Shown: positions 5,094-43,146 of the stretch, piece by piece
Layout of the letters: every line of letters begins with the position of its first letter
Numbering within the stretch: the first letter of the stretch is position 1
Assembly: GCA_017440145.1 (NCBI GenBank)
Contig: JAFSHU010000110.1
Span: forward strand, 1 to 43,760
Direction: 5' to 3'
Length of the DNA: 43,760 nucleotides
Source: Bacillota bacterium
GTDB taxonomy: Bacteria; Bacillota; Dehalobacteriia; UBA4068
The notes under the pieces: generated by a model
Seen by the model: the letters and a program-made list of their open reading frames with translations, nothing else
Told to the model about the DNA's origin: nothing
Database searches by the model: none
Made by a program: the position numbers and the translations under genes

Positions 5094-5924
5094 TTGAAAA
5101 TGAGAAGGAAATACGGAACGATGAGCCGTTTATTTCGATTATTTTTATATGCATCCCTGGCCATTCTGCTTTGGTTGGCGGATTCTCTGATTATGAGTTT
5201 TCTGGGGCAGACTGCCTTTCCGGAGGCTCTGTGGAGCTCTGTCCCGCCGAATCGGCTTCTCTTTCGTTTGCTGGGCTGCAGCGCTGTTTTGTTGTGCGGC
5301 TTCATGCATGCGATTCGCGGGGAGTTGATCAACCGGCATTATCGCCGCCTGTCTCCCAGTTATCAGCTGCTGCTTTTTGGCGATCGAAACAGCCCTCGGT
5401 CAGCTGTTCGCATGCATTATCATTGCTTGCGGCTTGCTGCCGTGATGCATGTTCGCCCGGCTGACCAGGAGTGCCTGCGCTTGCTGTGCTATTGCCATGA
5501 TATTGGCTTGGTGGGTGTTCCGGATGCGGTGTTGAATAAAACAGAGCCCCTGACACGGGAGGAACAGAATCTTTTGGATACCCATATTGCGCTGGGGGCG
5601 AAGATTGCTTCTAATATTCCGCAGCTGCGCCGGGTGGCCCCGCTGATTCTGGCGCATGAGGAAAATTACGATGGAAGCGGCGCCCGGGCTATGTACGGGA
5701 GAAGCATTCCTTTGACCTGCCGTATTTTTAAGCTGGTGCAGATGTATGATTATTTTACGCACCCCCATGATGGTGGGCGTGTTTTGGATGAGCGGGAGGC
5801 TCTGGATGAATTAAGCTTCTACTGCGGGCATGTTCTGGATCCGGATGTGATGGATGCCTTCCGGCGTTTGATGACCGACCACCGTTTGGCAAACACGGTT
5901 ACGCAGTATATTTTTTCTTCCTGA
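5094..5924 (+). CDS. Membrane-anchored, degenerate HD-GYP domain protein
   Basis: Two N-terminal hydrophobic helices; HDIG...PDAVLNK..PLT.EE, DGSG, IP...RI, LDP; start uncertain (5094, 5100 or 5121). Confidence 0.75.
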   Translation: MKMRRKYGTMSRLFRLFLYASLAILLWLADSLIMSFLGQTAFPEALWSSVPPNRLLFRLLGCSAVLLCGFMHAIRGELINRHYRRLSPSYQLLLFGDRNSPRSAVRMHYHCLRLAAVMHVRPADQECLRLLCYCHDIGLVGVPDAVLNKTEPLTREEQNLLDTHIALGAKIASNIPQLRRVAPLILAHEENYDGSGARAMYGRSIPLTCRIFKLVQMYDYFTHPHDGGRVLDEREALDELSFYCGHVLDPDVMDAFRRLMTDHRLANTVTQYIFSS

Positions 5925-5944
5925 AATCAAAACGATGCGCAAAA

Positions 5945-5990
5945 AAAGCCATCAGTTCGTGGCAATGGGCCCATACTGATGGCTTTCTCT
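5945..5990. terminator. Bidirectional terminator
   Basis: AAAGCCATCAGT...ACTGATGGCTTT 12-bp stem between convergent genes, flanked by A-rich and T-rich runs. Confidence 0.75.
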
Positions 5991-6016
5991 TTTGGATTTT
6001 GTTCACGTGGGGCATT

Positions 6017-6445
6017 TTATATGTCCCGATGAACGATGCTGTCCTTTTCCAGCTCATGAAGAATGCTTTCTATGTCCTCCCGGGCGTTTTCCGGAGCCTG
6101 CATAATATAGAGCTCAGTGCCGTAATGGCTGCTTTCCATTGTATCACCAAATTGTATTGTAAAGAATGGCGTCATTTTGTTATAGATTTCCCTATCCTGC
6201 GGCTTGGGCAGATCGCAGAGAAAAGAGAGGAACTCCGGGCTGATCCGACCCTGAAAGACTGTGCCATGCTTCCAATCGAAGTCGATTTTTGAGGCAAAAG
6301 AAGAGAGCAACTCCATTTCTGCCAGCTCATCTGACCAGCAATGCACCTGAAACATGTCTCCGATTTTTGCGCAGAGTCGAACCAAATCCCGCCACCAGGT
6401 ATTTGTAGGCTGCCGATTATTTATAAGAATGTGGTAAGAAAACAA
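6017..6445 (-). CDS. Hypothetical protein (~142 aa)
   Basis: Fills the gap between the terminator and a divergent promoter; TTG start after AAGGTG; globular composition with HCW and HYGTE segments. Confidence 0.65.
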   Translation of the reverse strand: MFSYHILINNRQPTNTWWRDLVRLCAKIGDMFQVHCWSDELAEMELLSSFASKIDFDWKHGTVFQGRISPEFLSFLCDLPKPQDREIYNKMTPFFTIQFGDTMESSHYGTELYIMQAPENAREDIESILHELEKDSIVHRDI

Positions 6446-6489
6446 TCTCAAACACCTTCTTTCCAAAAAGGCCCCCTTGCCTGCTCGCG

Positions 6490-6518
6490 TTGACAGGGGA
6501 GATAGAAAATAATATAAT
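6490..6518 (+). promoter_or_regulatory. Consensus sigma-A promoter for yfbR
   Basis: Perfect TTGACA-N17-TATAAT. Confidence 0.85.
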
Positions 6519-6546
6519 TAAAGGTAAGTTTGTATTGGAGGAGCAC

Positions 6547-7125
6547 ATGTATAATTTTTTTGCTTATCTTTCCCGGATGAAATTGATTCGCCGCTGGAGC
6601 CTGATGCGCAGTGTGCAGCCGGAAAACATACAGGAACATAGTCACCAGGTGGCTGTAATCGCTCATGCCCTGGCTGAAATAGATAATTTGCGTTTTGGTG
6701 CCAGTCATAATTGCGGAGAAGTGGTTTTGCTGGCTCTTTACCATGACGTAGGAGAGGTCATCATCGGGGATCTGCCGACACCGGTCAAATATTTTAACCC
6801 GGAAATCAAAGGCAGTTATGGAAAAATCGAGAACATTGCCAAAGAGAAATTGCTCTCCATGCTGCCTGCTGATTTGCGAGCTGTTTATCGGCCATATGTT
6901 TCTGCCGACGAGATGCAGCCTGAGTACCGTTTGGTAAAAGCGGCGGATAAGCTCTCCGCTTACCTGAAGTGCCTGGAGGAGCTAACGGTTGGCAATGGAG
7001 AGTTTCGCTTGGCTGAAAAGACCATTGCAGAGGATTTGAAGCAGTATATGGACATGCCGGCTGTTTGCTGGTTTTGGGAAGAATGCGTTCCCGCTTTCCG
7101 TCAAACCCTGGATGAATTGGGTTAA
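6547..7125 (+). CDS. yfbR: 5'-deoxynucleotidase (HD superfamily)
   Basis: SRMKLIRRWSLM, ENIQEHS, YHD..E...GDLPTPVKY, KAADKL; GGAGGAG RBS. Confidence 0.92.
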   Translation: MYNFFAYLSRMKLIRRWSLMRSVQPENIQEHSHQVAVIAHALAEIDNLRFGASHNCGEVVLLALYHDVGEVIIGDLPTPVKYFNPEIKGSYGKIENIAKEKLLSMLPADLRAVYRPYVSADEMQPEYRLVKAADKLSAYLKCLEELTVGNGEFRLAEKTIAEDLKQYMDMPAVCWFWEECVPAFRQTLDELG

Positions 7126-10301: not shown

Positions 10302-11550
10302 CAAAAGATTGCCCTGTAGTGGGGATAAATTAGAATTGTTGGCAAGTGAATTTGGTACGCCTTTTCACATTTATGATGAAGCTGCGATCCGCAGCAATGC
10401 CCGGAAGCTGCTGAAAGCCTTCTCCTGGGCACCCAGATTCAAGGAGTATTATGCGGTGAAGGCTTTACCCAATCCCTATATTCTGGAAATATTGGCAGAG
10501 GAAGGCTGTGGAGCGGACTGCAGCTCCCTTGCAGAGCTTATGCTGGCGAAGGCAGTTGGCTTGGCCGGGAGTGATGTATGCCTGACCTCCAATGATACCC
10601 CATTGGTTGAGTTCCAGACAGCTCTGGAAATGAACAGCATCATCAACCTGGATGATATCACGCATATTGATTACCTGCTCAGCAAGGCCCGTTTGCCGGA
10701 ATTGGTATCTTTCCGCTATAATCCGGGCCCGCTTCGAAAAGGTGGCAACGAAATTATTGGCTACCCGGAGCAGGCGAAATACGGAATGACCGGTACGCAG
10801 CTTTTGGAGGCCATCGCCATCTGCCGCGATCTGGGTGTGGAGCGTTTTGGCATTCACACTATGATCGTATCCAATGAATTGCAAGCAGACTATTTCCGGG
10901 ATACGGCTGTGATGATGTTTGATATGGCCACGAAGATCAAAAAAATCATGGGCATATCCGTGGAATTCATCAATCTGGGCGGCGGCATCGGCATCCCCTA
11001 TACACAGGAAGAGGCTCCCGTGGATCTGCTGGGGCTGGGGAATAAGATCCGTTTGGCTTATGAAGAAATTATGCTTCCTGCCGGGCTGGGAAATGTGGCC
11101 CTTTGCATGGAGAGTGGACGTATGATGACCGGCCCTTACGGCTGGCTTGTCAGCCGGGCGATCCATAGAAAGGAAATTTATAAAAACTACATCGGACTGG
11201 ATGCCAGCATGGCAGATCTGATGAGACCCGCGCTTTATGGGGCCTACCATCATATTACGGTTGTTGGCAAGGAAGATCTTCCGAAGGATCATATTTACGA
11301 TATTACCGGTTCTCTTTGTGAGAATAACGATAAGTTTGCCATTGATCGAGAACTGCCAAAGGTTGACGTGGGGGACCTTCTGGTTATCCATGATACGGGT
11401 GCCCATGGCCATGCAATGGGATTTAACTATAACGGAAAATTGCGCTCCAAGGAGCTGCTTTTGAAAACAGACGGCAGCGTAAAGTTGATTCGCAGAGCAG
11501 AAACGATTGACGATTACTTTGCAACTCTGGATTACCCCGGCTTGGTTTAG
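10294..11550 (+). CDS. lysA: Diaminopimelate decarboxylase
   Basis: TPFHIYDE, YYAVKA, NLGGG, ESGR, LMRPALYG, GSLCENND, MGFNYN. Confidence 0.95.
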   Translation: MNSKRLPCSGDKLELLASEFGTPFHIYDEAAIRSNARKLLKAFSWAPRFKEYYAVKALPNPYILEILAEEGCGADCSSLAELMLAKAVGLAGSDVCLTSNDTPLVEFQTALEMNSIINLDDITHIDYLLSKARLPELVSFRYNPGPLRKGGNEIIGYPEQAKYGMTGTQLLEAIAICRDLGVERFGIHTMIVSNELQADYFRDTAVMMFDMATKIKKIMGISVEFINLGGGIGIPYTQEEAPVDLLGLGNKIRLAYEEIMLPAGLGNVALCMESGRMMTGPYGWLVSRAIHRKEIYKNYIGLDASMADLMRPALYGAYHHITVVGKEDLPKDHIYDITGSLCENNDKFAIDRELPKVDVGDLLVIHDTGAHGHAMGFNYNGKLRSKELLLKTDGSVKLIRRAETIDDYFATLDYPGLV

Positions 11551-11647
11551 CTATTCTCCCGGCAAAGAAGAAACAAACAGAAGGGGAAAGCCTGGTTTAT
11601 GGCGAAAATTTAAGTGCTTTTTACTCTCTATTTTTGGTGAGGCTGCT

Positions 11648-33196: not shown

Positions 33197-35197
33197 ATGG
33201 AAAAAGCTAAGATCAGGAAAACGGCAGGGGAGGCAGAAGCTGCCCGCTCCTCTTTTTCAAATTCAAAATTTTGGCTGCGTGTGCTTTTGTGGCTGGGAGT
33301 CATTTTTTTTCAGGAGCTCTACCTGCATTTTATGATCTATCCGGGGGCTACTGCCGCAGAGAATTATTTCTATCTGGGGATGTTTTCCGTTTCCTATGCC
33401 TTGCTCGGCGCGTTTCTCTGCTCCCTGGCATCAGGCAGATGGAATTATATTCTGAGCCTGCTGCTGTGCGCTTTTGTTTCGATCCTCTACATAGCCCAAT
33501 ATGTATATCATTTGTTTTTTAAAACGCCTTTGCTGGTCTTTTCGATATTTAACAGCGGGCAGGTAACGGAATTTGCCGGGGAAGCGATTCGAATGATCGT
33601 AAGCCATTTGCCGCAAATTCTGGTTTTCCTGCTGCCCTTGATTTTGATTGCTGTTTTTGGCCGCAAAAGCTTTCCCGCCTGTAAATGGAAAGGCAGCTGG
33701 CTGCTGCTCATTTTGTCCATTTTATTTTATTGCGGTGCTTTAGCCGTTTTGCCCATCTCCGGCTCCAGTGCGCCAAACTCCGCATATAACTGTTTCTATA
33801 ATGAGAACAACCCCCTTCCTACTCAGCAGAAGCTGGGCGTGCTGACTTTTATGCAGCTGGATGCCCGCCGAACCCTTTGGGGCTTTGCACCGAAGGATCT
33901 TCCCCTGGCAGTGGAACTTCCGGAAGAGGATGAGCAGACTGATGCAGAGCAGGGAGAGACTCTGCCGGATTATGGCTATAATGCCATGGACATTGATTTC
34001 GAAGCGCTGCTGGCGAACGAAAGCGATGAGACCATCCGAAATATGCATATCTATTTTTCTTCCCTGGAGCCTTCCCGAAAAAATGAATATACCGGGAAAT
34101 TCGCAGGAAAGAATTTGATCGTGATCACGGCGGAAGGATTCTATTATCCCCTGTTGGAAACGGGTATGTTTCCTTCTGTAAAACGTCTGGCAACGGAAGG
34201 CTTTGAGTTTGCCAATGCCTATACGCCATTGTGGAATGTTTCCACCAGCGATGGGGAATACGCTGTCATGAGCTCTTTGCTCCCGGCCAGTGGGGTGTGG
34301 AGCTTTGCCCGCTCTGCGGAAAACTACATGCCCTTTGCCTTTGGTAATCAGTTTTCTGCTTTGGGCTATGAAAGCGTATATGCTTTTCATAACCACAGCT
34401 TTGATTATTATGACCGGCAGCTGTCTCATCCGAATCTGGGCTATACTTACCTGGGGCGGGGAAATGGCCTGGATATTACAGAGCAGTGGCCGGAAAGCGA
34501 TATTGAGCTTATGGAGGCATCCATACCCTATTACATAAATAGTGACAGCTTTCATGTTTATGATTTGACGGTATCCGGTCACCTGGAATACAATTTCAGC
34601 GGAAACATGATGGCGGCAAAGCATAGGGGAGAGGTCGAGCACCTGAATTATTCCGAGGAAGTAAAAGCCTATATTGCCTGCAATCTGGAGCTGGAATACG
34701 CAGTTCAATATCTTTTCGAGCAGCTGGAGGCAAGCGGCAAGCTGGATGATACGGTGATCGTTCTTTCTGCCGATCATTATCCCTATGGCTTATCGGATGC
34801 AGCCATTGATGAATTGGTGGGGCATCCGGTAGAACGAAATTTTGAGCTGTATCGGAACACCATTGCGATTTGGAGTGCGGATCAGGAGCATATGCTGATC
34901 GATACCCCGATCTGCAGCCTGGATATCCTGCCTACGGTCTCCAATCTCTTTGGGCTGGAATATGACTCCCGTTTGCTGATGGGGCGGGATGTTTTCTCTG
35001 ATGCGCTTCCTCTGATTGCCTTTAACAATCGCAGCTGGATTACGGATCAGGCCAGATATGATGCGACAACGGATGTTTTATATGGCGATGTTTCTCAGGA
35101 ATATGTGGATGCGATAAATGAGATCGTGAATGGAAAGTTCCTTTATTCCGCAGATATTTTGTTCAATGATTATTACCGTCTGGTTTTCGGAAAGTAG
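33197..35197 (+). CDS. LTA synthase (LtaS) family / phosphoglycerol transferase
   Basis: About 5 N-terminal TM helices plus a sulfatase-fold domain: GKNLI...E, TSDGE (catalytic Thr), SGH, ADH, DILPT...L.G. Confidence 0.85.
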   Translation: MEKAKIRKTAGEAEAARSSFSNSKFWLRVLLWLGVIFFQELYLHFMIYPGATAAENYFYLGMFSVSYALLGAFLCSLASGRWNYILSLLLCAFVSILYIAQYVYHLFFKTPLLVFSIFNSGQVTEFAGEAIRMIVSHLPQILVFLLPLILIAVFGRKSFPACKWKGSWLLLILSILFYCGALAVLPISGSSAPNSAYNCFYNENNPLPTQQKLGVLTFMQLDARRTLWGFAPKDLPLAVELPEEDEQTDAEQGETLPDYGYNAMDIDFEALLANESDETIRNMHIYFSSLEPSRKNEYTGKFAGKNLIVITAEGFYYPLLETGMFPSVKRLATEGFEFANAYTPLWNVSTSDGEYAVMSSLLPASGVWSFARSAENYMPFAFGNQFSALGYESVYAFHNHSFDYYDRQLSHPNLGYTYLGRGNGLDITEQWPESDIELMEASIPYYINSDSFHVYDLTVSGHLEYNFSGNMMAAKHRGEVEHLNYSEEVKAYIACNLELEYAVQYLFEQLEASGKLDDTVIVLSADHYPYGLSDAAIDELVGHPVERNFELYRNTIAIWSADQEHMLIDTPICSLDILPTVSNLFGLEYDSRLLMGRDVFSDALPLIAFNNRSWITDQARYDATTDVLYGDVSQEYVDAINEIVNGKFLYSADILFNDYYRLVFGK

Positions 35198-35208
35198 CGA
35201 GGTCAACT

Positions 35209-35880
35209 ATGCTGAGAATTTTGCTTGCAGAGGATAATACAGAGCTGCGCCACCTGATGAAGATTCGTCTGAATCGTGCTGGCTATGATGTGGTGGAAGC
35301 TGGGGATGGCCTGGAAGCTCTGGATATTCTGGCAAAAACGCAGGTGCATCTTTTGATTGTAGATGTGATGATGCCGAATATGGATGGCTGCGAGTTGACA
35401 GCCGCCCTGCGCAGTGCGAATATCGATACGCCGATTTTGATGGTTACCGCAAAGGGGGGCCTGGATGATAAAAAAACGGGTTTCCATGCTGGAGCCGATG
35501 ATTATCTGGTCAAACCTGTTGATATGGATGAAATGCTTCTGCATATTGAGGCGCTTCTTCGCCGTTCCCGCATCTCAAGGGAAAAGGAAATGGTTATCGG
35601 CTCCACGGTTCTGAATGAGGATCGTTTGAGTGTCACCTGCGGCGCGCAGGAGATTCTTCTGCGCAGAAAGGAGTTCCAGCTGCTGTTTTTGCTGCTCTCT
35701 TATAAAGGGAGGATCTTTACCAGACAAATGCTGATGGACGAGATTTGGGGATATGACAGTGAAACGGACCAGAGAACTGTGGATGTGCATATTAAACGCT
35801 TGCGGGAAAAGTTCAGCGACAATGCAGATTTTTCGATTCAGACGGTACGTGGTCTGGGATATAAGGCGGTGGAAAAATGA
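35209..35880 (+). CDS. OmpR-family response regulator, HssR-like
   Basis: AED, DVMMP, VTAK, GADDYLVKP, DQRTVDVHIKRLREK, TVRGLGY. Confidence 0.93.
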   Translation: MLRILLAEDNTELRHLMKIRLNRAGYDVVEAGDGLEALDILAKTQVHLLIVDVMMPNMDGCELTAALRSANIDTPILMVTAKGGLDDKKTGFHAGADDYLVKPVDMDEMLLHIEALLRRSRISREKEMVIGSTVLNEDRLSVTCGAQEILLRRKEFQLLFLLLSYKGRIFTRQMLMDEIWGYDSETDQRTVDVHIKRLREKFSDNADFSIQTVRGLGYKAVEK

Positions 35881-36935
35881 GGCCTCGTTACCATATCCGC
35901 TGGAAGGTCATTCTTTGGGGTATGATGGTCATTGTGGGCAGCTCAATCTTATGCTGGGCGCTCACGCCATTTATTGAGACGCTTCTGTCAAATTACATCA
36001 GCTCTGCTGAGCGGGGGCGCTTCATCATTTGGATCAGCCAGGGTTTGACGTACATCGTTTTTTTCATCTTCGCCTTGCTCTTGGCGATTATTACCTCCAA
36101 AACGATGGTAAACCGTGTGTTGGAGCTATCTCTGGCAGCGAAAGAAATTGCGCGCGGAAATTTCTCTGTTCGTGTTTCCGATATAGATCGGCACGATGAG
36201 GTTTATCAGCTGGCGCTTGATTTTAACCGCATGGCGGAACAGCTGCAAAGAAATGAATATATGCGGAAAGACTTCATATCCAACGTTTCCCATGAGATTA
36301 AAACACCGTTATCTGTTATCAATGGCTATGTGGATCTTTTGCTGGAGGAGCCCGAAGCGGCTGAAGGGAAGGAATATCTGGAGATCATCAGCCGGGAAAG
36401 CAAGCGCTTGCTGCGGATCAGCCAGAATATGCTGCATATTTCCCAGCTGGATAACGATAGCATCCGGAAAACAAATGAAACCTTTCGTTTGGATGAGCAG
36501 CTGCGGCAGGTAATTCTTCTGCTGGAACCTCATTGGTCTTCGAAAGATATTGAGCTGGATATTAACCTGGATGAATGCTTTTATACCGGCGATCCTGAGC
36601 TGTTGGTGCAGGTATGGGTAAATCTTTTGGATAACGCGATTAAATTTACCCCTGCCTCAGGAAAAATTGCCATTGGATTGCAGGAGCATGACCGCATTCA
36701 GGTTACCGTTGCTGATACCGGCATCGGGATGGATCAGGAGGCGCAGCAGCGGATCTACGAGCAGTTTTATCAGGGGGATCGTTCCCGCAGAAGAGAGGGC
36801 GCTGGCCTGGGCATGTCGATCGTAAAAAGAATTATTGATTTGCACGAAGGAGATATCTCGATTCACAGCGCCTTGGGCGAAGGTACAAAAATTGATGTAT
36901 TTCTGCCAAAGAAAAACAAGCCCTCAGTGCATTAA
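35877..36935 (+). CDS. HAMP-domain sensor histidine kinase with two TM helices and a very short outer loop (HssS-like)
   Basis: FISNVSHEIKTP, NLLDNAIKF, DTGIG, FYQGD.SR, GAGLG; ATGA overlap with the response regulator. Confidence 0.93.
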   Translation: MRPRYHIRWKVILWGMMVIVGSSILCWALTPFIETLLSNYISSAERGRFIIWISQGLTYIVFFIFALLLAIITSKTMVNRVLELSLAAKEIARGNFSVRVSDIDRHDEVYQLALDFNRMAEQLQRNEYMRKDFISNVSHEIKTPLSVINGYVDLLLEEPEAAEGKEYLEIISRESKRLLRISQNMLHISQLDNDSIRKTNETFRLDEQLRQVILLLEPHWSSKDIELDINLDECFYTGDPELLVQVWVNLLDNAIKFTPASGKIAIGLQEHDRIQVTVADTGIGMDQEAQQRIYEQFYQGDRSRRREGAGLGMSIVKRIIDLHEGDISIHSALGEGTKIDVFLPKKNKPSVH

Positions 36936-36952
36936 ACGGAGGGCTTGTTTTT
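36912..36952. terminator. Bidirectional terminator overlapping the kinase stop codon
   Basis: AAAAACAAGCCCTC...GAGGGCTTGTTTTT 14-bp stem. Confidence 0.8.
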
Positions 36953-37001
36953 ATATTGGATATATAATGGCGTTAAACGATAAATTCTCTTTATAAAAGC
37001 C

Positions 37002-37841
37002 TTATTTCATATGGATCTCGCCGCTGAAAGGCGTTTCCAATAATTTGGGGTCACGCAGATATTTCTGCAGGGAGCGGAAAGCAAAAGAGAAATAGTGACC
37101 GGAGCAGATGCGTTCATCCATGACCACACCAACCGGCATGCAGCGCGTCAGCTTCACCTGGCCATCTTTGCCGGCGCTGGGAATTTCACGAAGATTCCCA
37201 AGGGCGCAAAGCACGCTGGTGGTACCAAAATTATAAATGTGATGATAAATATGGTTCGTGCGGATGCTGGCCAGATTTGTAATCGTCATGCTGGAATGGA
37301 AGGGACTCAGATCAATGATGCTTTTGGGTAGAAGACCATGCTTATCCATCCACATGAGCACAGGAACGCCAAAACGGAGCAGGCCGGGGATTTTTGTCAT
37401 GAAGTTCATGAATTTATCCAGAGAATTGGTAATATCTTCTGCTGCGGTGTTGATTTCAATAAATTTATCTACCTTTTTGCAAACGGAGAAAATATCCTCG
37501 CCCGGGGTGAAATAAAGTTTTCCCATCGTGGAATTATCTGCCCCCGGTTTTAAGGTCACCATGGCAATCGCCAGCTCGTTGCGGTCATAAATGGTTCTGT
37601 TTACAACAAAACGATTCAAGAGAGGGAATTCTGCAATGACCTGCACATAAGCTGCCAGGAACAGGCTCAAATGGGAAACATGAAAATTCTCTTTGCGTTT
37701 CTCATTGATATATTTTTGCATTGGCTCCACGGGAATATCCAATGTAATCATGTTCATGGCGTCATTGCGTTCTTTCATGATGTGAGGTACAAAAAGATAC
37801 ATAAGCTCTGCGTTTTTTACTTTCGTACCATCTTTTCGCAT
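37002..37841 (-). CDS. Stand-alone 2-oxoacid dehydrogenase E2/CAT-fold acyltransferase-like protein
   Basis: FPLLNRFV, TITNLAS, DERICSG in place of DHRxxDG; no lipoyl domain; AGGAGG RBS. Confidence 0.7.
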   Translation of the reverse strand: MRKDGTKVKNAELMYLFVPHIMKERNDAMNMITLDIPVEPMQKYINEKRKENFHVSHLSLFLAAYVQVIAEFPLLNRFVVNRTIYDRNELAIAMVTLKPGADNSTMGKLYFTPGEDIFSVCKKVDKFIEINTAAEDITNSLDKFMNFMTKIPGLLRFGVPVLMWMDKHGLLPKSIIDLSPFHSSMTITNLASIRTNHIYHHIYNFGTTSVLCALGNLREIPSAGKDGQVKLTRCMPVGVVMDERICSGHYFSFAFRSLQKYLRDPKLLETPFSGEIHMK

Positions 37842-37921
37842 AATCTACCTCCTATAAAATATACCATAAAAAATATTTCGAGCTTTATCTCAAAAATCCT
37901 ACAGAAGAGTCCAGGTTTTTA

Positions 37922-37976
37922 GTTCATATTTGATTCATATATCGTTCATAAATAGTTAAAGTATCTCACCTATACT
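37922..37976 (+). promoter_or_regulatory. Triple direct repeat (HssR-box-like) with downstream -10; probable activator-dependent promoter of the sulfotransferase operon
   Basis: GTTCATATT-TG-ATTCATATA-TC-GTTCATAAA (11-bp period); TATACT at 37971-37976 with no consensus -35. Confidence 0.7.
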
Positions 37977-38041
37977 AATTAAGATTGTGAAGATTTTTCA
38001 GTAATTATTTTTTGAATATTAACACATTAGGAAGATGTTTT

Positions 38042-39169
38042 ATGGCTAAAAAAACTGTTATTCCTCTGCTGAATTTCAGCCACATAATGCTGGGCTGCCG
38101 CTTTGATATTTGGCTTCATTTATTGATAAAAAATCGTTTCCGGGTTTCTTTGCGAAATATCCCGCAGGCTGTTTTGATTACGCTCGTTACTTTGCTGCTG
38201 TTTCCTTTTGCGATTTTGGAGCGCTTGCTTTTGGCAGCGGCCCTGAAACGGCAAAAGGTGAAGTCCCCATTGTTTATTCTGGGTCACTGGCGCAGCGGCA
38301 CCACATATTTGCAGAACATGCTGAGCAAAGATACGCAGTTCGGGTATTTTGACCCGGTCAGCACGGTGACCTGCCACAATTCCTGGCTGCTTCGCCCTCT
38401 TTTGGCTCTTCTGGAAAAGGGCGCGATTTCAGATGCACGGCCTATGGATAATATGGAATACAGCATGGATCTGCCAATGGAAGAGATGCTGGCTGTAAAT
38501 GCATCCACCCAGGTTTCCATTGCCCATATGCTTTGTTTTGCTGAGGATTACCCCCATTATATCAATCAGGCCTTCGTGGACGAGCTGCCTGAGAAAAGCC
38601 GGGAGAACTGGGATCAGGTTTATCGCTATTTGTTAAAAAAGCAAACTTTTCTCTGCAAAGGGAAATCCCTGCTTTTGAAGTCTCCGGATTCCACCTGCCA
38701 CGCAGCGGAGCTTTACCGGCTTTTTCCGGATGCAAAATTTATCAACATCTACCGCAACCCTTATAAAGTCATCCCTTCCACCATCAATATGTTTAACAAG
38801 CTGTTTGCTTTTCAATCTCTGCAAAATCCTCCGGATCCACAGGTTGTGGAGGATACTGTCCTGCGTCTCTTTAAACGGGCTTATGAAAAGCTATTCGCAG
38901 ATATGAAAATGATTCCTTCCGGGCAGCTGGTGGAAATTCAGTACGAAGAATTTGTGAAGCAGCCCATTGCTTATGCGGAACGAATTTATCAATCTTTGGG
39001 CATTCCCGGCTTTGAAAAAGCCAAACAGAATTTTCAGGCTTATGTAGATTCGCAGATTGGGTATCAGAAAAATAAATTCAATGTGCGGCCCGAACTGGTG
39101 GCACGGATCAATAAAGAGTTAAAATTTTATTTCGAGCATTATGGCTACGAAATGATGCAGGAGGCTTAA
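38042..39169 (+). CDS. PAPS-dependent sulfotransferase (Sulfotransfer_3; Stf3/Bacteroides SULT-like), membrane-anchored
   Basis: 5'-PSB loop ILGHWRSGTT, RPMDNM, LKSP, 3'-PB FINIYRNPYKVIPS, YEEF; N-terminal hydrophobic helix. Confidence 0.9.
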   Translation: MAKKTVIPLLNFSHIMLGCRFDIWLHLLIKNRFRVSLRNIPQAVLITLVTLLLFPFAILERLLLAAALKRQKVKSPLFILGHWRSGTTYLQNMLSKDTQFGYFDPVSTVTCHNSWLLRPLLALLEKGAISDARPMDNMEYSMDLPMEEMLAVNASTQVSIAHMLCFAEDYPHYINQAFVDELPEKSRENWDQVYRYLLKKQTFLCKGKSLLLKSPDSTCHAAELYRLFPDAKFINIYRNPYKVIPSTINMFNKLFAFQSLQNPPDPQVVEDTVLRLFKRAYEKLFADMKMIPSGQLVEIQYEEFVKQPIAYAERIYQSLGIPGFEKAKQNFQAYVDSQIGYQKNKFNVRPELVARINKELKFYFEHYGYEMMQEA

Positions 39170-40051
39170 ATGGATCATTTGGCGAAACTGGAAAGTAAAA
39201 GCATCTATATTTTGCGGGAAGCTTATGCTGCTTTCAATAATTTGTGCATGCTGTGGTCGATCGGAAAGGACAGTACAGTGCTTCTTTGGCTGGCACGCAA
39301 AGCCTTTTTGGGGCATGTACCGTTCCCTTTGGTGCATATTGACACGCATTATAAAATTCCGGAAATGATTGCTTATCGTGATCAGCTGGCAAAGGATTAT
39401 CATCTCTATATGGTATACGGCGAAAACAGGGAGGCTCTGGAAAGCAAGCAAACCTATCCGGATGGGAATACGACCCGTGTGGAATGCTGCCGTTTGCTGA
39501 AGACAGAGGCTCTCACCAATACATTGAACGGCAGCTGGCCGCGTTATCGTCTGAATCTGGAAACCGGCCTTTACGAGCTGGACAGCAACAAAGAGGCTTA
39601 TACCGGTGTTATCGTAGGAGCGCGTTCCGATGAAGAAGGCTCCCGCTCCAAGGAGCGTTATTTTTCTCCCCGGGATTCTCATAACGATTGGGATCTGGAT
39701 GACCAGCCTCCGGAATTCTGGAATCAATTTAAAACGGATTTCGCCCCCAATACTCATGTGCGGATCCATCCTTTGCTGGATTGGACTGAATTGAACATTT
39801 GGGAATATATCGAGCGGGAGAACATCCCCACGGTTTCTTTGTATTACGATCAGGGCGATGGCAAGCGCTATCGTTCTTTGGGCTGTGCGCCCTGCACAGG
39901 CCCCATTGAATCCACATCCAAATGCCCGGCAGATATTATCGAGGAGCTGCGTTCCGGCAAGCTGAGCAATATCGCGGAGCGGAGCGGCCGCGCGCAGGAT
40001 AAAGAGGATGGCGGCGGCTTGGAAACCTTGCGCCGCAACGGCTACATGTAA
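39170..40051 (+). CDS. cysD: Sulfate adenylyltransferase subunit 2
   Basis: [46 protein letters not shown]. Confidence 0.95.
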
Positions 40052-40090
40052 GAGATAATCCTTATTTCTCAGATAAAGGTGATAAAAAAC

Positions 40091-41971
40091 ATGACGAAGG
40101 ATTTACAAAAAAGCGCCTTACCCCAGGAAGAAATGATGAATGTGGTCATGGTTGGCCATGTGGATCACGGAAAAAGTACCGTAATTGGCCGTTTGCTGGC
40201 AGATACAGATAGCTTGCCGGAGGGTAAGCTGGATATGGTTCGGGAGAATTGCAAGCGCAATTCCAAGCCCTTCGAATATGCCTTCCTGCTGGATGCTTTG
40301 AAAAACGAACAGGCACAGGGTATCACCATTGATACAGCCCGCTGCTTTTTCAAGACGCAAAAGCGCCGCTACATTTTGATCGATGCTCCCGGTCACATTG
40401 AATTTCTGAAGAATATGGTGACCGGTGCCAGCCGTGCAGAGGCTGCCATGTTGGTCATCGATGCTGCCCGGGGGGTAGAGGAGAATACCCGGCGGCACGG
40501 TTATTTCCTCTCTATGCTGGGGATTCGCCAGGTCGTGGTTTTGGTAAACAAAATGGATCTGGTGGACTATAAAGAATCCGTATTTCAGGATATCAGCCAG
40601 CAGTATGCAGAGTTTTTACGGAAAATTGATATCCAGCCCCAGGCCTTCATCCCGGTCAGCGGCTACGAAGGGGATAATATTGCAAATCATTCAGATCGTA
40701 TGCCCTGGTTCAAGGGGAAAAATTTGCTGGAGCAGCTGGATGAGTTCCAAAACGCTGTTCCTGCGGATCTTCAGCCGCTTCGTCTGCCGGTGCAGGGTGT
40801 TTATAAATTCACGGAGAACAATGATAGCCGCCGTATCATCGCAGGTACGGTGGAAGCCGGCACCCTGCAGCAGGGGGATCAGATCGTCTTCTATCCTTCC
40901 GGGAAACGCACTGCGGTAAAGACCCTGGAACGCTTCAATGACAGCTGTGAACGTCCCTTTATTTCCCAGGAAGCAGCCGGCTTTACCATGACGGATCAGA
41001 TTTATGTGAAGCGGGGAGAAATTGCCTGCCGGGCAAATGAGCCTGCTCCGCATACGGGGGTACGCCTGCGGGTCAATCTTTTCTGGCTGGGAAAGGCCAG
41101 ATTGGAAAAAAACAAGAATTACCTCTTTAAATGCGGGACCGCCAAGGTTTCCATGCAGCTTGAGCAGGTAGAGCGCGTGGTAAATGCCTCTGACCTTTCC
41201 TGCGTGAACCGCCAATATATCGAAAAAAACGAAGTTGCAGAGTGTACCCTGACGCTGGATAGCCCTATCGCTTTTGATTTAGCCGGATCTTGCGAAGCCA
41301 GCAGCCGTTTTGTTATTGTGGACAGCTACGAAATCGCAGGTGGGGGCATTATTACCGAAGCGCTGGAATCGGAGCATTTTGATAAGCGGAATATTCGCTG
41401 GACAGCCGGCAGCGTTGGCATAAAGGAACGTTGTCAGCTCAATGGCCACAAAGGTTTGATCGTTTGGATGACGGGGCTTTCCGGCTCCGGGAAGAGTTCC
41501 ATTGCGGAGGATGTGGAGCGGCAGCTGGTTGCGGCCGGCATTCATACATATGTTTTGGACGGAGATAAGCTGCGGCATGGGCTGAACAGTGATTTGGGCT
41601 TCAGTCAGCAGGATCGGGAAGAAAATGTCCGCAGAACAGCCGAGCTGGCTGCCCTGCTGGAGGATGCAGGCCTGGTGACCATTGTAACCCTGATTTCTCC
41701 CTTTGCGGAGGGCCGGGCCTTTGCTCGCAGCCGCAGCCGGCAGGAGTTTGTCGAGGTTTACGTGAAGGCACGTTTGGAAACCTGCATCAAGCGTGATCCT
41801 AAGCAGCTTTATCGAAAGGCTCTGGAAGGGCAAATCTCCGATTTTACCGGGATCAGCTCCGCTTACGAAGCACCGACAGAGCCGGATTTGGTTCTGGATA
41901 CGGATATTTGGTCTGAAGAGGAGTGCGTGGAAGTGCTTTTCAATAACATTATGACCAGGGTAGCCGAATAA
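40091..41971 (+). CDS. cysNC: Bifunctional sulfate adenylyltransferase subunit 1 / APS kinase (CysNC, NodQ-like)
   Basis: [24 protein letters not shown] GTPase motifs; C-terminal [32 protein letters not shown]. Confidence 0.95.
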
Positions 41972-42001: not shown

Positions 42002-42733
42002 GTGTCGGAGTTTTTGCTCTATGTTCTGATCGGCTTTTTGGCTCAGTTGGTGGATGGTACGGCAGGGATGGCCTATGGCTTGAGCTGCCGCACCTTCCTG
42101 AAAGTATTCTTTGGGATGCCCGCGAGCATTATCAGTGCTGTGGTGCATTGGGCAGAAGCACCGGTCAGTCTGGTTTCCGGAATCTCCCATTTTTCTTTGG
42201 GCAATGTGGATCGGTCTTTGCTGCTTCGCTTGCTTTTGCCGGGCGTTCTTGGGGGATTGTGCGGCGTCTATCTGGTGGTCCAGATCGGCTCCCATTTTGA
42301 ACATTTGATTTCCGTTTACCTGCTCATCATGGGTCTTCTGATCCTCTGGCGGGCTTTGCGGCCGAGTCGTCCACGGCATACGGTGCCGAAGCGTTTTTTG
42401 ATCCCGCTGGCTCTGATTGGTGGCTTTTTGGACGCAAGCGGCGGTGGAGGATGGGGGCAAATCGTAGGAGGAACCCTGCTTGCCGGTGGAAATGATGCAA
42501 AGAAAACCATTGGCAGCGTGAATGTGGCAGAAGCCTTTGTTACATTGGTTGAGGCTGTGGCTTTCTTTGCTATGCTGGGAGAGATCAAAAGCTATCTTCC
42601 GATTATTGGCGGCCTGGTTACAGGGGGGATTTTATCCGCACCTCTGGCTGCCTGGTGCTGCATGAAGGTTCCCACGCGCCCGCTTCTGATTGCTGTCGGC
42701 GTTTTAATTATTTTGTGTAACCTCTCTTTTTGA
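42002..42733 (+). CDS. TauE/SafE (TSUP) family sulfur-anion transporter
   Basis: AQLVDG..GMAYG and FLDASGGGGWG motifs; multiple TM helices; GTG start with GGAGG RBS. Confidence 0.88.
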   Translation: MSEFLLYVLIGFLAQLVDGTAGMAYGLSCRTFLKVFFGMPASIISAVVHWAEAPVSLVSGISHFSLGNVDRSLLLRLLLPGVLGGLCGVYLVVQIGSHFEHLISVYLLIMGLLILWRALRPSRPRHTVPKRFLIPLALIGGFLDASGGGGWGQIVGGTLLAGGNDAKKTIGSVNVAEAFVTLVEAVAFFAMLGEIKSYLPIIGGLVTGGILSAPLAAWCCMKVPTRPLLIAVGVLIILCNLSF

Positions 42734-42768
42734 GGCAGAGCGGATTTTTATACCAAGGAGTGATTTTT

Positions 42769-43146
42769 ATGATCAAAGGAATCCACCATATTTCCCTGCG
42801 GGCAAATGGTCCTCTTGCTTTTGAGAAGGCGATTGCTTTTTATACAGAACTATTGGCTTGCCGTCCGCTCCGCAGATGGGGTGAGCAGCGCGGGATCATG
42901 CTGGATGCCGGAAACTGCCTTCTGGAGATCCTTTCCACCGGCCCGGAATCGGATCAGGATGGGCATTGGCAGCATCTGGCCTTTGCTGTGGAAGATGTGG
43001 AAGCCATGACAGAAAAAATTCGCCATTCCGGTTATGAGATTACGAAAGAAGTAAAGCGCCTGACTTTGGGGGAGGATTACCCGATCTGCATCTCGTTTTG
43101 CAGAGGGCCGCTGGGTGAAGAAATCGAGTTTTTCCAGGAACTGTAA
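42769..43146 (+). CDS. VOC / glyoxalase family protein
   Basis: IHHISL, FYTELL, LEI, HLAFAVEDV, GP.GEEIEF; AAGGAG RBS. Confidence 0.88.
   Translation: MIKGIHHISLRANGPLAFEKAIAFYTELLACRPLRRWGEQRGIMLDAGNCLLEILSTGPESDQDGHWQHLAFAVEDVEAMTEKIRHSGYEITKEVKRLTLGEDYPICISFCRGPLGEEIEFFQEL

Follow-up and report, generated by a model that had tools for sequence, protein, structure and literature searches.

OmpR-family two-component systems are known to govern sulfation pathways: PhoPR governs the sulfolipid genes of Mycobacterium tuberculosis, and RaxRH governs the raxST sulfotransferase of Xanthomonas. To our knowledge, neither of these is a dedicated cassette in which sensor and operon travel together and the box and -10 keep a fixed architecture. 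Another point of comparison is offered by the pho boxes of Escherichia coli and Bacillus subtilis, in which tandem direct repeats with a period of one helical turn replace the -35 element and end about 10 nucleotides (nt) before the -10; the Bacillus Pho core sites comprise four repeats, equivalent to two dimers. In this work we describe a repeat box that lies between the genes of an OmpR/PhoB-family two-component system and a sulfation operon, in a 43,760-nt stretch of DNA from a Bacillota bacterium (contig JAFSHU010000110.1 of assembly GCA_017440145.1) that will be referred to as the window. PhoPR and RaxRH resemble this locus in that an OmpR-family two-component system governs, or here would govern, a sulfation pathway; they differ from it in belonging to unrelated lineages and in the sulfotransferases and substrates concerned. 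A literature search listed papers that join PhoPR with sulfolipids, whereas one RaxST paper (PMC4892823) makes no mention of RaxR.

The first-pass annotation of this DNA had likened the two-component system to HssRS. According to the accessible parts of the relevant reports, HssR acts via a direct repeat in its target promoter in Listeria and Staphylococcus aureus (PMC6305404) and in Bacillus anthracis (PMC3968170). The available portion of a preprint on the sensor (bioRxiv 10.1101/2022.11.03.515132) describes HssS as having two transmembrane (TM) helices that flank a 133-residue extracellular domain, with a heme pocket at the membrane/extracellular interface that uses Arg94 and Arg163, and describes HrtB, part of the HrtBA pump controlled by HssRS, as a MacB-like permease. 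On the side of the enzymes, the closest described gut systems are BtSULT of Bacteroides thetaiotaomicron, which acts on steroids, and ErSULT of Eubacterium ramulus, both of the Sulfotransfer_3 family (PMC13449962, JACS 2026). The accessible text of that paper further reports that ErSULT sulfonates 3- and 16-hydroxyhexadecanoic acid and that STF1 of M. tuberculosis is a structural match of ErSULT; no regulator or inducer is described in it, and its workflow includes labelling with 34S-PAPS.

We propose, with a probability of roughly 0.78, that positions 37922-37965 of the window are the operator of an activator-dependent promoter, which would be bound by the adjacent OmpR/PhoB-family regulator and would drive the sulfation operon. 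OmpR-family activator-dependent promoters are a known type, of which a conserved target in a sulfation operon would be a variant. The proposed box binder is a 223-residue response regulator (35209..35880, + strand) with a receiver domain (PF00072, 99.9 bits) and a winged-helix Trans_reg_C domain (PF00486, 90.6 bits), both over their cut-offs; it reaches no NCBIfam equivalog. Its orthologues beside this operon in other genera share 58-69% identity with it. It is followed by the gene for a 352-residue membrane histidine kinase (35877..36935, + strand), in which TM1 (residues ~9-29), an outer loop of ~19 residues and TM2 (~49-73) precede the HAMP (74-124), HisKA and HATPase_c domains found with Pfam. 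Neither a PAS domain nor an extracellular domain was detected in the kinase by Pfam scan or from its sequence. This short-loop layout is shared by all eight of the kinase orthologues that were aligned, with a loop of ~15-20 residues and TM2 and HAMP directly after it.

The core of the box had been recognised in the first-pass annotation as three copies of TTCATA in exact 11-bp phase, and re-reading of the window bore this out: positions 37922-37952 read GTTCATATT-TG-ATTCATATA-TC-GTTCATAAA, with TTCATA at 37923, 37934 and 37945, and the -10 hexamer TATACT stands at 37971-37976 (+ strand). The accompanying claim that this hexamer has no consensus -35 also held, a sigma-70 consensus scan calling no promoter with a -35 at TATACT. 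What had been overlooked was a fourth, degenerate unit in the same phase, GTTAAAGTATC (37955-37965). The box was therefore extended to 37922-37965 (+ strand), where it consists of the four tandem 11-bp units GTTCATATTTG, ATTCATATATC, GTTCATAAATA and GTTAAAGTATC. The heptamer of the fourth unit is GTTAAAG in the window and GTTAAAC in the closest relative, G001, and the unit bridges the gap to the -10. The -10 begins 5 nt past this last unit, whose conserved heptamer ends 9 nt before it, so that the units cover the positions of the -35 and the spacer. Transcription would be expected to start near 37983.

The intergenic region that holds the box is 200 nt long and AT-rich. The phased pair TTCATA-N5-TTCATA, with one mismatch at most, gave two overlapping matches in the window, both at the box; the mean in shuffled sequence was 0.27, and one of 100 shuffles reached two. 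The single hexamer occurs 31 times in 87,520 positions (window, both strands; shuffle mean 21.8), from which we calculate about 4e-6 exact phased triples per window. The source assembly (G000) comprises 168 contigs and 1.59 Mb with 54.7% G+C, and is 84% complete. A genome scan of the kind proposed with the original observation found RTTCATA-N4-RTTCATA nowhere but at this site, and TTCATA-N5-TTCATA at one additional site, at the end of a coding frame on contig C93. An Rfam scan of 36900-38200 gave nothing at the box. Strain variation was assessed from the contigs of four DNA runs over 37600-38250, one of which covers the box only partly: eight variable places were seen and none fell in 37922-37976, where about 0.7 would be expected, so that this absence is uninformative.

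Conservation upstream of orthologous operons had been set beforehand as a test on which the proposal could fail, and the proposal withstood it. Orthologues of the sulfotransferase were found in 4 of the 40 relatives searched; the species-level genome collection yielded 594 relatives, of which the best 80 were kept. Sixteen loci had the sulfotransferase-cysD-cysNC arrangement, or were cut before the arrangement became visible, and (G/T)TTCA(T/C)A units in 11-bp phase were present in 13 of them. With the addition of L013 and L027, box-bearing loci number 15 and represent several lineages of Clostridia, with none of them from a cultured strain; L032, L036 and L037 had no box upstream of the sulfotransferase. 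The number of units varies, with two in some loci, three in L030 and four in G001, G021 and L018. Within the 250 nt upstream, a relaxed dyad pattern had a density of 3.5 per kb, compared with 0.0087 per kb-strand in the rest of the same 16 loci.

A position matrix was built from 28 units of 11 relatives' loci, with the window excluded. When this matrix was run over both strands of the source assembly, the window site ranked first and second (24.1 and 22.2 bits), the next match reaching 18.8 bits. The other matches, on C93, C133, C120 and C79, scored 18.8 bits or less, are placed at the end of a gene, in a leader or where the context is unclear, and were not counted as targets; the sulfation operon is the best target of the box in this genome, and probably the only strong one. 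Across the 300 nt upstream of 83 sulfotransferase loci, 15 scored at least 14.5 bits and 68 at most 8.7 bits, with a median of 2.6 for the lowest 67. Among the 15 high scorers, the window, L013 and L027 have distinct boxes that lay outside the training of the matrix.

The spacing to the promoter is equally constant. Counted from the first base of the proximal unit, a TAnnnT hexamer begins at exactly +16 nt in 13 of 13 loci, while such hexamers occur at 93 of the 3185 positions (2.9%) of these regions. L013 and L027 have this spacing as well. The 16 nt correspond to an 11-nt unit and 5 nt, after which the -10 follows. No recognisable -35 was found in any of the aligned promoters, and in each of the 15 loci the repeats point the same way with respect to the -10. 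A T-rich motif, (A/G)GATTTTT, was also seen to recur in leaders from several lineages, at a distance of 3-22 nt past the -10, with the letters AAGATTGTGAAGATTTTTCAG in the window (37977-38041), TTAAGATTTTTGG in L017 and CCAGATTTTTATATG in L026 and L028, and with a further example in L006; it could be a mark of the start region or a second control element.

The box is linked to the neighbouring two-component system by gene order and by co-occurrence. Besides the window, eight further loci have regulators 56-69% identical and kinases of the same architecture adjoining the operon, in four arrangements. In L018, L025, L026, L028 and L029 the two-component genes immediately precede the operon and run in its direction; in G004 the regulator and sulfotransferase genes diverge directly from each other and share the intergenic region that bears the box; a gene for a protein with a chloramphenicol acetyltransferase (CAT)-like domain stands between the two-component genes and the operon in the window and in G021; and the two-component genes are downstream and reversed in L024 and G041. 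G001 probably belongs with the CAT-separated loci, its sulfotransferase contig beginning inside a kinase gene and its regulator (83% identical) standing on another contig. Regulators were also found outside the fetched flank in G041 (62%, same contig, ~10 kb away) and G042 (57%), elsewhere in the genome in L013 (58%) and L027 (69%), and, as in G001, on another short contig in G002 (68%).

The first-pass annotation had suggested that co-occurrence of two-component system, box and sulfotransferase be followed in relatives. The regulator subfamily (54-100% identity) was found in all 15 box-bearing genomes, next to the operon in nine of them, and in one of the six box-less sulfotransferase genomes, where the best regulators are 38-44% identical in five cases and 55% in one (G054). 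A one-sided Fisher test gives ~3e-4 by our own arithmetic, uncorrected for relatedness. The source assembly has only four Trans_reg_C matches; of the three besides this regulator, one is VanR-like, one is linked to a kinase with WalK as its best, sub-cut-off, model, and one is a 436-residue open frame. The locus shows the domain pair, the ~11-bp direct repeats and the replacement of the -35 by a box at a fixed distance from the -10 that are expected of OmpR/PhoB-family activator promoters. The regulatory link of the box to the neighbouring two-component system is well supported by comparative genomics.

The subfamily is Clostridia-wide and extends to systems with other neighbours. It was found in 19 of the 41 genomes searched, the source assembly included; an order-level search among genomes at least 90% complete, which reached 33 genomes, added nothing to this. 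In relatives without the sulfotransferase, boxes of this kind with the +16 hexamer were seen in several settings. In G003 the box stands before the regulator's own gene; in G014 four units and a TATACT lie ~640 nt upstream of the regulator gene. The box precedes a divergent gene for a fused ABC-ATPase/FtsX protein in G019, and in G025 and G048 a divergent operon of HlyD, an ABC-ATPase and a MacB-type permease, with TCTAAT, not TAnnnT, as the proximal hexamer. Several genomes from that genus also have a weaker pair of the TTAAT type, with TAnAAT at +16, ahead of their regulator gene. As the same box and regulator thus occur with varied targets, the regulator-box pair would appear to be the conserved core, the output being lineage-specific.

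Several points weigh against our proposal. The units of the matrix, and the proximal unit of the spacing test, were picked by eye from the same alignments, which makes these tests partly post hoc, and the proximal unit of the window and of G001 is a weak match. Because most of the genomes are incomplete and mutually related metagenome bins, the counts overstate their independence. The subfamily is far wider than the sulfation module, with at least 120 proteins 61-69% identical and with 14 of the 19 genomes that carry it lacking the sulfotransferase, so that its presence alone does not imply control of the operon; the box-less sulfotransferase genome G054 has it as well. The stretch of the window upstream of the regulator gene yielded no autoregulatory box, and other OmpR-family regulators, which recognise similar half-sites, might cross-bind. 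A search for RNA runs that contain the locus listed none, which speaks neither for nor against its expression.

On the evidence from gene order, box and spacing, we infer that the regulator binds the repeats and activates, in preference to repressing, the operon. A membrane-borne stimulus would activate the short-loop kinase (35877-36935), which would phosphorylate the regulator (35209-35880). The phosphorylated regulator would then bind the four 11-bp units head-to-tail as two tandem dimers and recruit RNA polymerase to the promoter lacking a -35, as PhoB does at a pho box; since the heptamer of the last unit ends 9 nt before TATACT, the regulator would occupy the place of the missing -35. 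Transcription of sulfotransferase, cysD, cysNC and tauE genes would begin near 37983, and the operon would make 3'-phosphoadenosine 5'-phosphosulfate (PAPS) and spend it through a sulfotransferase that carries an N-terminal hydrophobic helix, with the TauE permease made alongside.

The recognition helix of the regulator had been called HssR-like, and its motif, DQRTVDVHIKRLR, is indeed present; the specificity for HssR did not stand, the helix being generic to the family, as two related genomes have RTVDVHI-x-x-LR in Pho-type regulators whose overall identity to this protein is just 37-42%. Unit 1 of the box is identical to the 9-mer that the first-pass annotation gives for HssR. The HssR box would have two units, as against four here. 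Full-text literature searches did not find the letters of the HssR box, including in the text of PMC3968170, PMC5238366, PMC12153329 and PMC6305404, the last of which, in its accessible part, places the sequence in a supplementary figure; a literature search joining YclJ with TTCATA found nothing.

The system shares with HssRS-HrtAB an OmpR-family regulator, a direct repeat in the promoter and the HAMP-HisKA-HATPase part of the kinase. Its nearest ESM-Atlas clusters are automatically named HssR for the regulator and HssS for the kinase (~355 residues), which is a lead and not orthology. The subfamily of the relatives faces exporters of the MacB/FtsX type, the class of HrtB, as HssRS controls HrtBA according to the accessible text cited above. 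These likenesses, and the 9-mer of unit 1, speak for true heme sensing, in which the system would be an orthologue of the staphylococcal and Bacillus sensor and heme would induce sulfation, and yet we consider this unlikely. The loop measures ~19 residues here, and ~15-20 in the eight orthologues, as against the 133-residue extracellular domain given for HssS in the available portion of the preprint, and no hrtAB-like target bears the box in the source assembly. Neither an HssS-type sensor nor an HrtAB target was thus found in this system, whose output is a PAPS-synthesis and sulfotransferase operon, not a pump, and whose host is an anaerobic gut member of the Clostridia. The HssRS label is therefore only partly apt: it serves in the sense of nearest named relatives with a swapped output, and fails on the sensor.

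The accompanying suggestion that a modification module stands here in place of a pump fares better, in that the box of sister systems (G019, G025 and G048) faces MacB/FtsX exporters; the detoxifying role that was attached to it is plausible, though unproven. Tentatively, the locus might be a portable sense-and-sulfate cassette, in which a relative of HssRS without its sensor domain detects a lipophile of host or dietary origin in the membrane, perhaps a bile acid, a sterol or a hydroxy fatty acid, and induces PAPS synthesis, the sulfotransferase with its hydrophobic N-terminal helix and the TauE permease in place of the MacB-type pump of sister systems.

The adjacent regulator might instead bind the repeats as a repressor or roadblock, leaving the operon on by default and off on signalling. 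The cover of the -35 and spacer positions by the units, to within 5 nt of the -10, could occlude RNA polymerase and counts for such a role and against activation. We regard it as improbable, as the aligned promoters have no recognisable -35 and the scan calls no promoter here, as the base-exact spacing to the -10 would be expected if the protein must contact the polymerase, and as the repeats keep a constant orientation in all 15 loci.

A further reading takes the box for a pho box, through which a phosphate-starvation regulator would switch the operon on, for instance to let sulfate replace phosphate-based anionic groups. The repeat period, the replacement of the -35 and the distance to the -10 are all shared with PhoB/PhoP promoters; four repeats abutting a -10 are the classical Pho-promoter layout, and the units GTTCACA and GTTAACA resemble Bacillus-type Pho half-sites. 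The best NCBIfam models, both sub-threshold, are moreover PhoB for the regulator and PnpS for the kinase. These scores lie far under the cut-offs, however, and two box-bearing relatives (G004 and G041) have a separate, canonical pstCAB-phoU-phoB-phoR locus, whose regulator is 37-42% identical and whose kinase measures 549-562 residues; on these two grounds we reject a Pho identity, which appears very unlikely. The kinase of the window also has no PAS domain, the target is not one of phosphate scavenging, and operons without the box were seen in genomes where the closest regulator reaches ~40% identity, no more than the Pho-type regulators do. In the source assembly, neither PstS (TIGR00975) nor a classical PhoU was found, although at 84% completeness absence is not implied; the sole PhoU domains detected there are in a 668-residue open frame (C71:1882-2442, - strand).

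That the repeats serve the divergent CAT-like gene, whose start lies 81-124 nt from the box, or are chance repeats in an AT-rich intergenic region is most improbable, since seven box-bearing loci lack this gene and have the box between the kinase (or regulator) gene and the sulfotransferase gene, since the repeats keep one orientation and one spacing towards a -10 on the plus strand, and since conservation and the genome-wide rank of the matrix exclude a box arisen by chance.

The operon that we propose to be driven from the box begins with a PAPS-type sulfotransferase of 375 residues (38042..39169, + strand; Sulfotransfer_3, PF13469, 122.3 bits against a cut-off of 27). Its start was assigned to the ATG at 38042, which AGGAAG precedes, and not to 38012. 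The AlphaFold model (mean predicted local distance difference test score 90.1) has a Stf-like fold and a long hydrophobic N-terminal helix at residues ~37-63. Its best Protein Data Bank (PDB) folds in a Foldseek search were mycobacterial Stf9 (2z6v, E 3e-10) and Stf1 (2zq5, E 1.4e-9), with TM scores of 0.61-0.65, and both are also matched by the sequence. Across 32 homologues, the loops GHWRSGTT and R-x-P-Y...S vary little or not at all, and G81, W83, R84, G86, T87, T88, R238, P240, Y241 and S246 are invariant; we take these loops to bind the 5'-phosphosulfate and the 3'-phosphate, respectively.

The following genes would supply the sulfate donor. CysD, the small subunit of sulfate adenylyltransferase (39170..40051, + strand; NCBIfam NF003587, 342 bits against a cut-off of 195), is encoded directly 3' of the sulfotransferase in all operon-type loci. 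It is followed by a CysN-CysC fusion (40079..41971, + strand; Pfam GTP_EFTU and APS_kinase), which joins the large subunit to an adenosine 5'-phosphosulfate (APS) kinase and, by homology, makes PAPS; it scores 617 bits with PRK05506, under the cut-off of 715, and is over the cut-off for CysN with TIGR02034. A TauE/SafE-family anion permease (42002..42733, + strand; PF01925), encoded also after CysNC in L011, L026, L028 and L029, is probably the last conserved gene of the operon. The stop of tauE is overlapped by a gene for a protein of the glyoxalase/bleomycin-resistance fold (42730..43146, + strand; PF00903), whose membership of the operon is uncertain and which was not seen in the relatives' loci with a tblastn query. 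No cysH, for a PAPS or APS reductase, was found in the source assembly (84% complete), where only cysD passes the PAPS_reduct cut-off, and PAPS for this reason looks dedicated to sulfation.

The operon is comparable with BtSULT and ErSULT in the Sulfotransfer_3 family, in the Stf-type structural matches and in the CysD, CysN and APS-kinase genes that supply PAPS; it differs in having a candidate regulator, none being described in the accessible part of PMC13449962. The closest homologues in Lachnospiraceae and Eubacterium are 46-49% identical and stand alone, without adjoining cysDN, box or regulator genes, and no Eubacterium ramulus entry was among the best 120 matches of the protein search, in which the names were generic ('response regulator transcription factor', 'sulfotransferase'). 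As ErSULT sulfonates hydroxyhexadecanoic acids, hydroxylated lipids are a reasonable first guess at the substrate. Our guess would be a hydroxylated lipophilic compound, for instance a sterol, a bile acid or a hydroxy fatty acid, or else a lipid from the envelope of the cell itself. The sulfotransferase family, including an N-terminal RFDxW and hydrophobic helix, was also seen at 31-36% identity in Thermoplasmatota, Asgard archaea, Planctomycetota, Bacteroidota and cyanobacteria (L038-L089), most of these distant members standing alone without adjoining cysDN.

Upstream of the operon, the order of genes on the plus strand is ispE, a gene for an LtaS/sulfatase-fold protein, response regulator and histidine kinase. 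The LtaS/sulfatase-fold product is a multi-TM membrane protein of 666 residues (33197..35197, + strand; Pfam Sulfatase, with a weak NCBIfam match to LtaS far under the cut-off). As its gene ends 11 nt before that of the regulator, the two-component genes are probably co-transcribed with it; a counterpart was not detected beside the two-component genes of other loci. In G021, a GC-rich hairpin with T-run, and a gap of 300 nt, come after the gene upstream of the two-component system.

The CAT-like gene (37002..37841, - strand) encodes a 279-residue protein with a 2-oxoacid-dehydrogenase/CAT-like acyltransferase C-terminal domain (PF00198, 36 bits); no NCBIfam match and no useful PDB sequence match were found for it, and it is probably not the target of the box. 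G001, G002 and G021 have this gene adjacent to the operon, and the box-less L032 has it downstream of cysNC. Copies adjoin sulfation genes in box-bearing and box-less loci alike (L006 598-1437; L010 3843-4679; L032 11155-11991), with an invariant GVVMDERI(C/A)SG and an invariant HIYHH. In the former, Glu presumably replaces the His that is catalytic in the DHRxxDG motif. The kinase and CAT-like genes converge on a hairpin at 36911-36981, whose match to Thr_leader is sub-threshold (29 bits, the gathering score being 55). This hairpin probably terminates transcription in both directions; a simple terminator scan did not call it.

Some features were also noted near the two-component genes of relatives. 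A weaker dyad (15.7 bits) is conserved ahead of the regulator gene, on the minus strand, in L028 (5012-5076), L026 (~3154) and L029 (~4611), and faces a PUA/SAM-methyltransferase gene ~310 nt off; it is possibly a second target or an autoregulatory site in that lineage. Beside sister two-component systems we observed a small gene resembling RelA/SpoT-domain alarmone synthetases, together with a TetR gene, in L136 of G003 (10891-11598, - strand), and a gene for a DUF362/4Fe-4S protein in L141 of G019 (5797-6942).

The bacterium described here would probably switch sulfation on in response to a membrane signal. Gut bacterial sulfotransferases have been recognised only recently, with BtSULT and, in 2026, ErSULT, and their substrates are found by laborious metabolomics; the accessible text of PMC13449962 says nothing of when the enzymes are expressed. 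A dedicated cassette of sensor, regulator and operator turns the question of the substrate into a reporter screen, in which an inducer of the promoter becomes the prime candidate for the substrate or trigger. The locus also appears to be a clear natural case of exchanged outputs within a two-component family: one regulator subfamily, with one kind of box and promoter geometry, would drive an exporter or a chemical-modification operon according to lineage. Were the more tentative idea of a sense-and-sulfate cassette to be true, the intruding compound would be made charged and membrane-impermeant, a chemical expulsion replacing efflux; the inducer would be the natural substrate of the enzyme, and the locus would be the first means of learning, by way of regulation, when gut Clostridia carry out sulfation and on which compounds.

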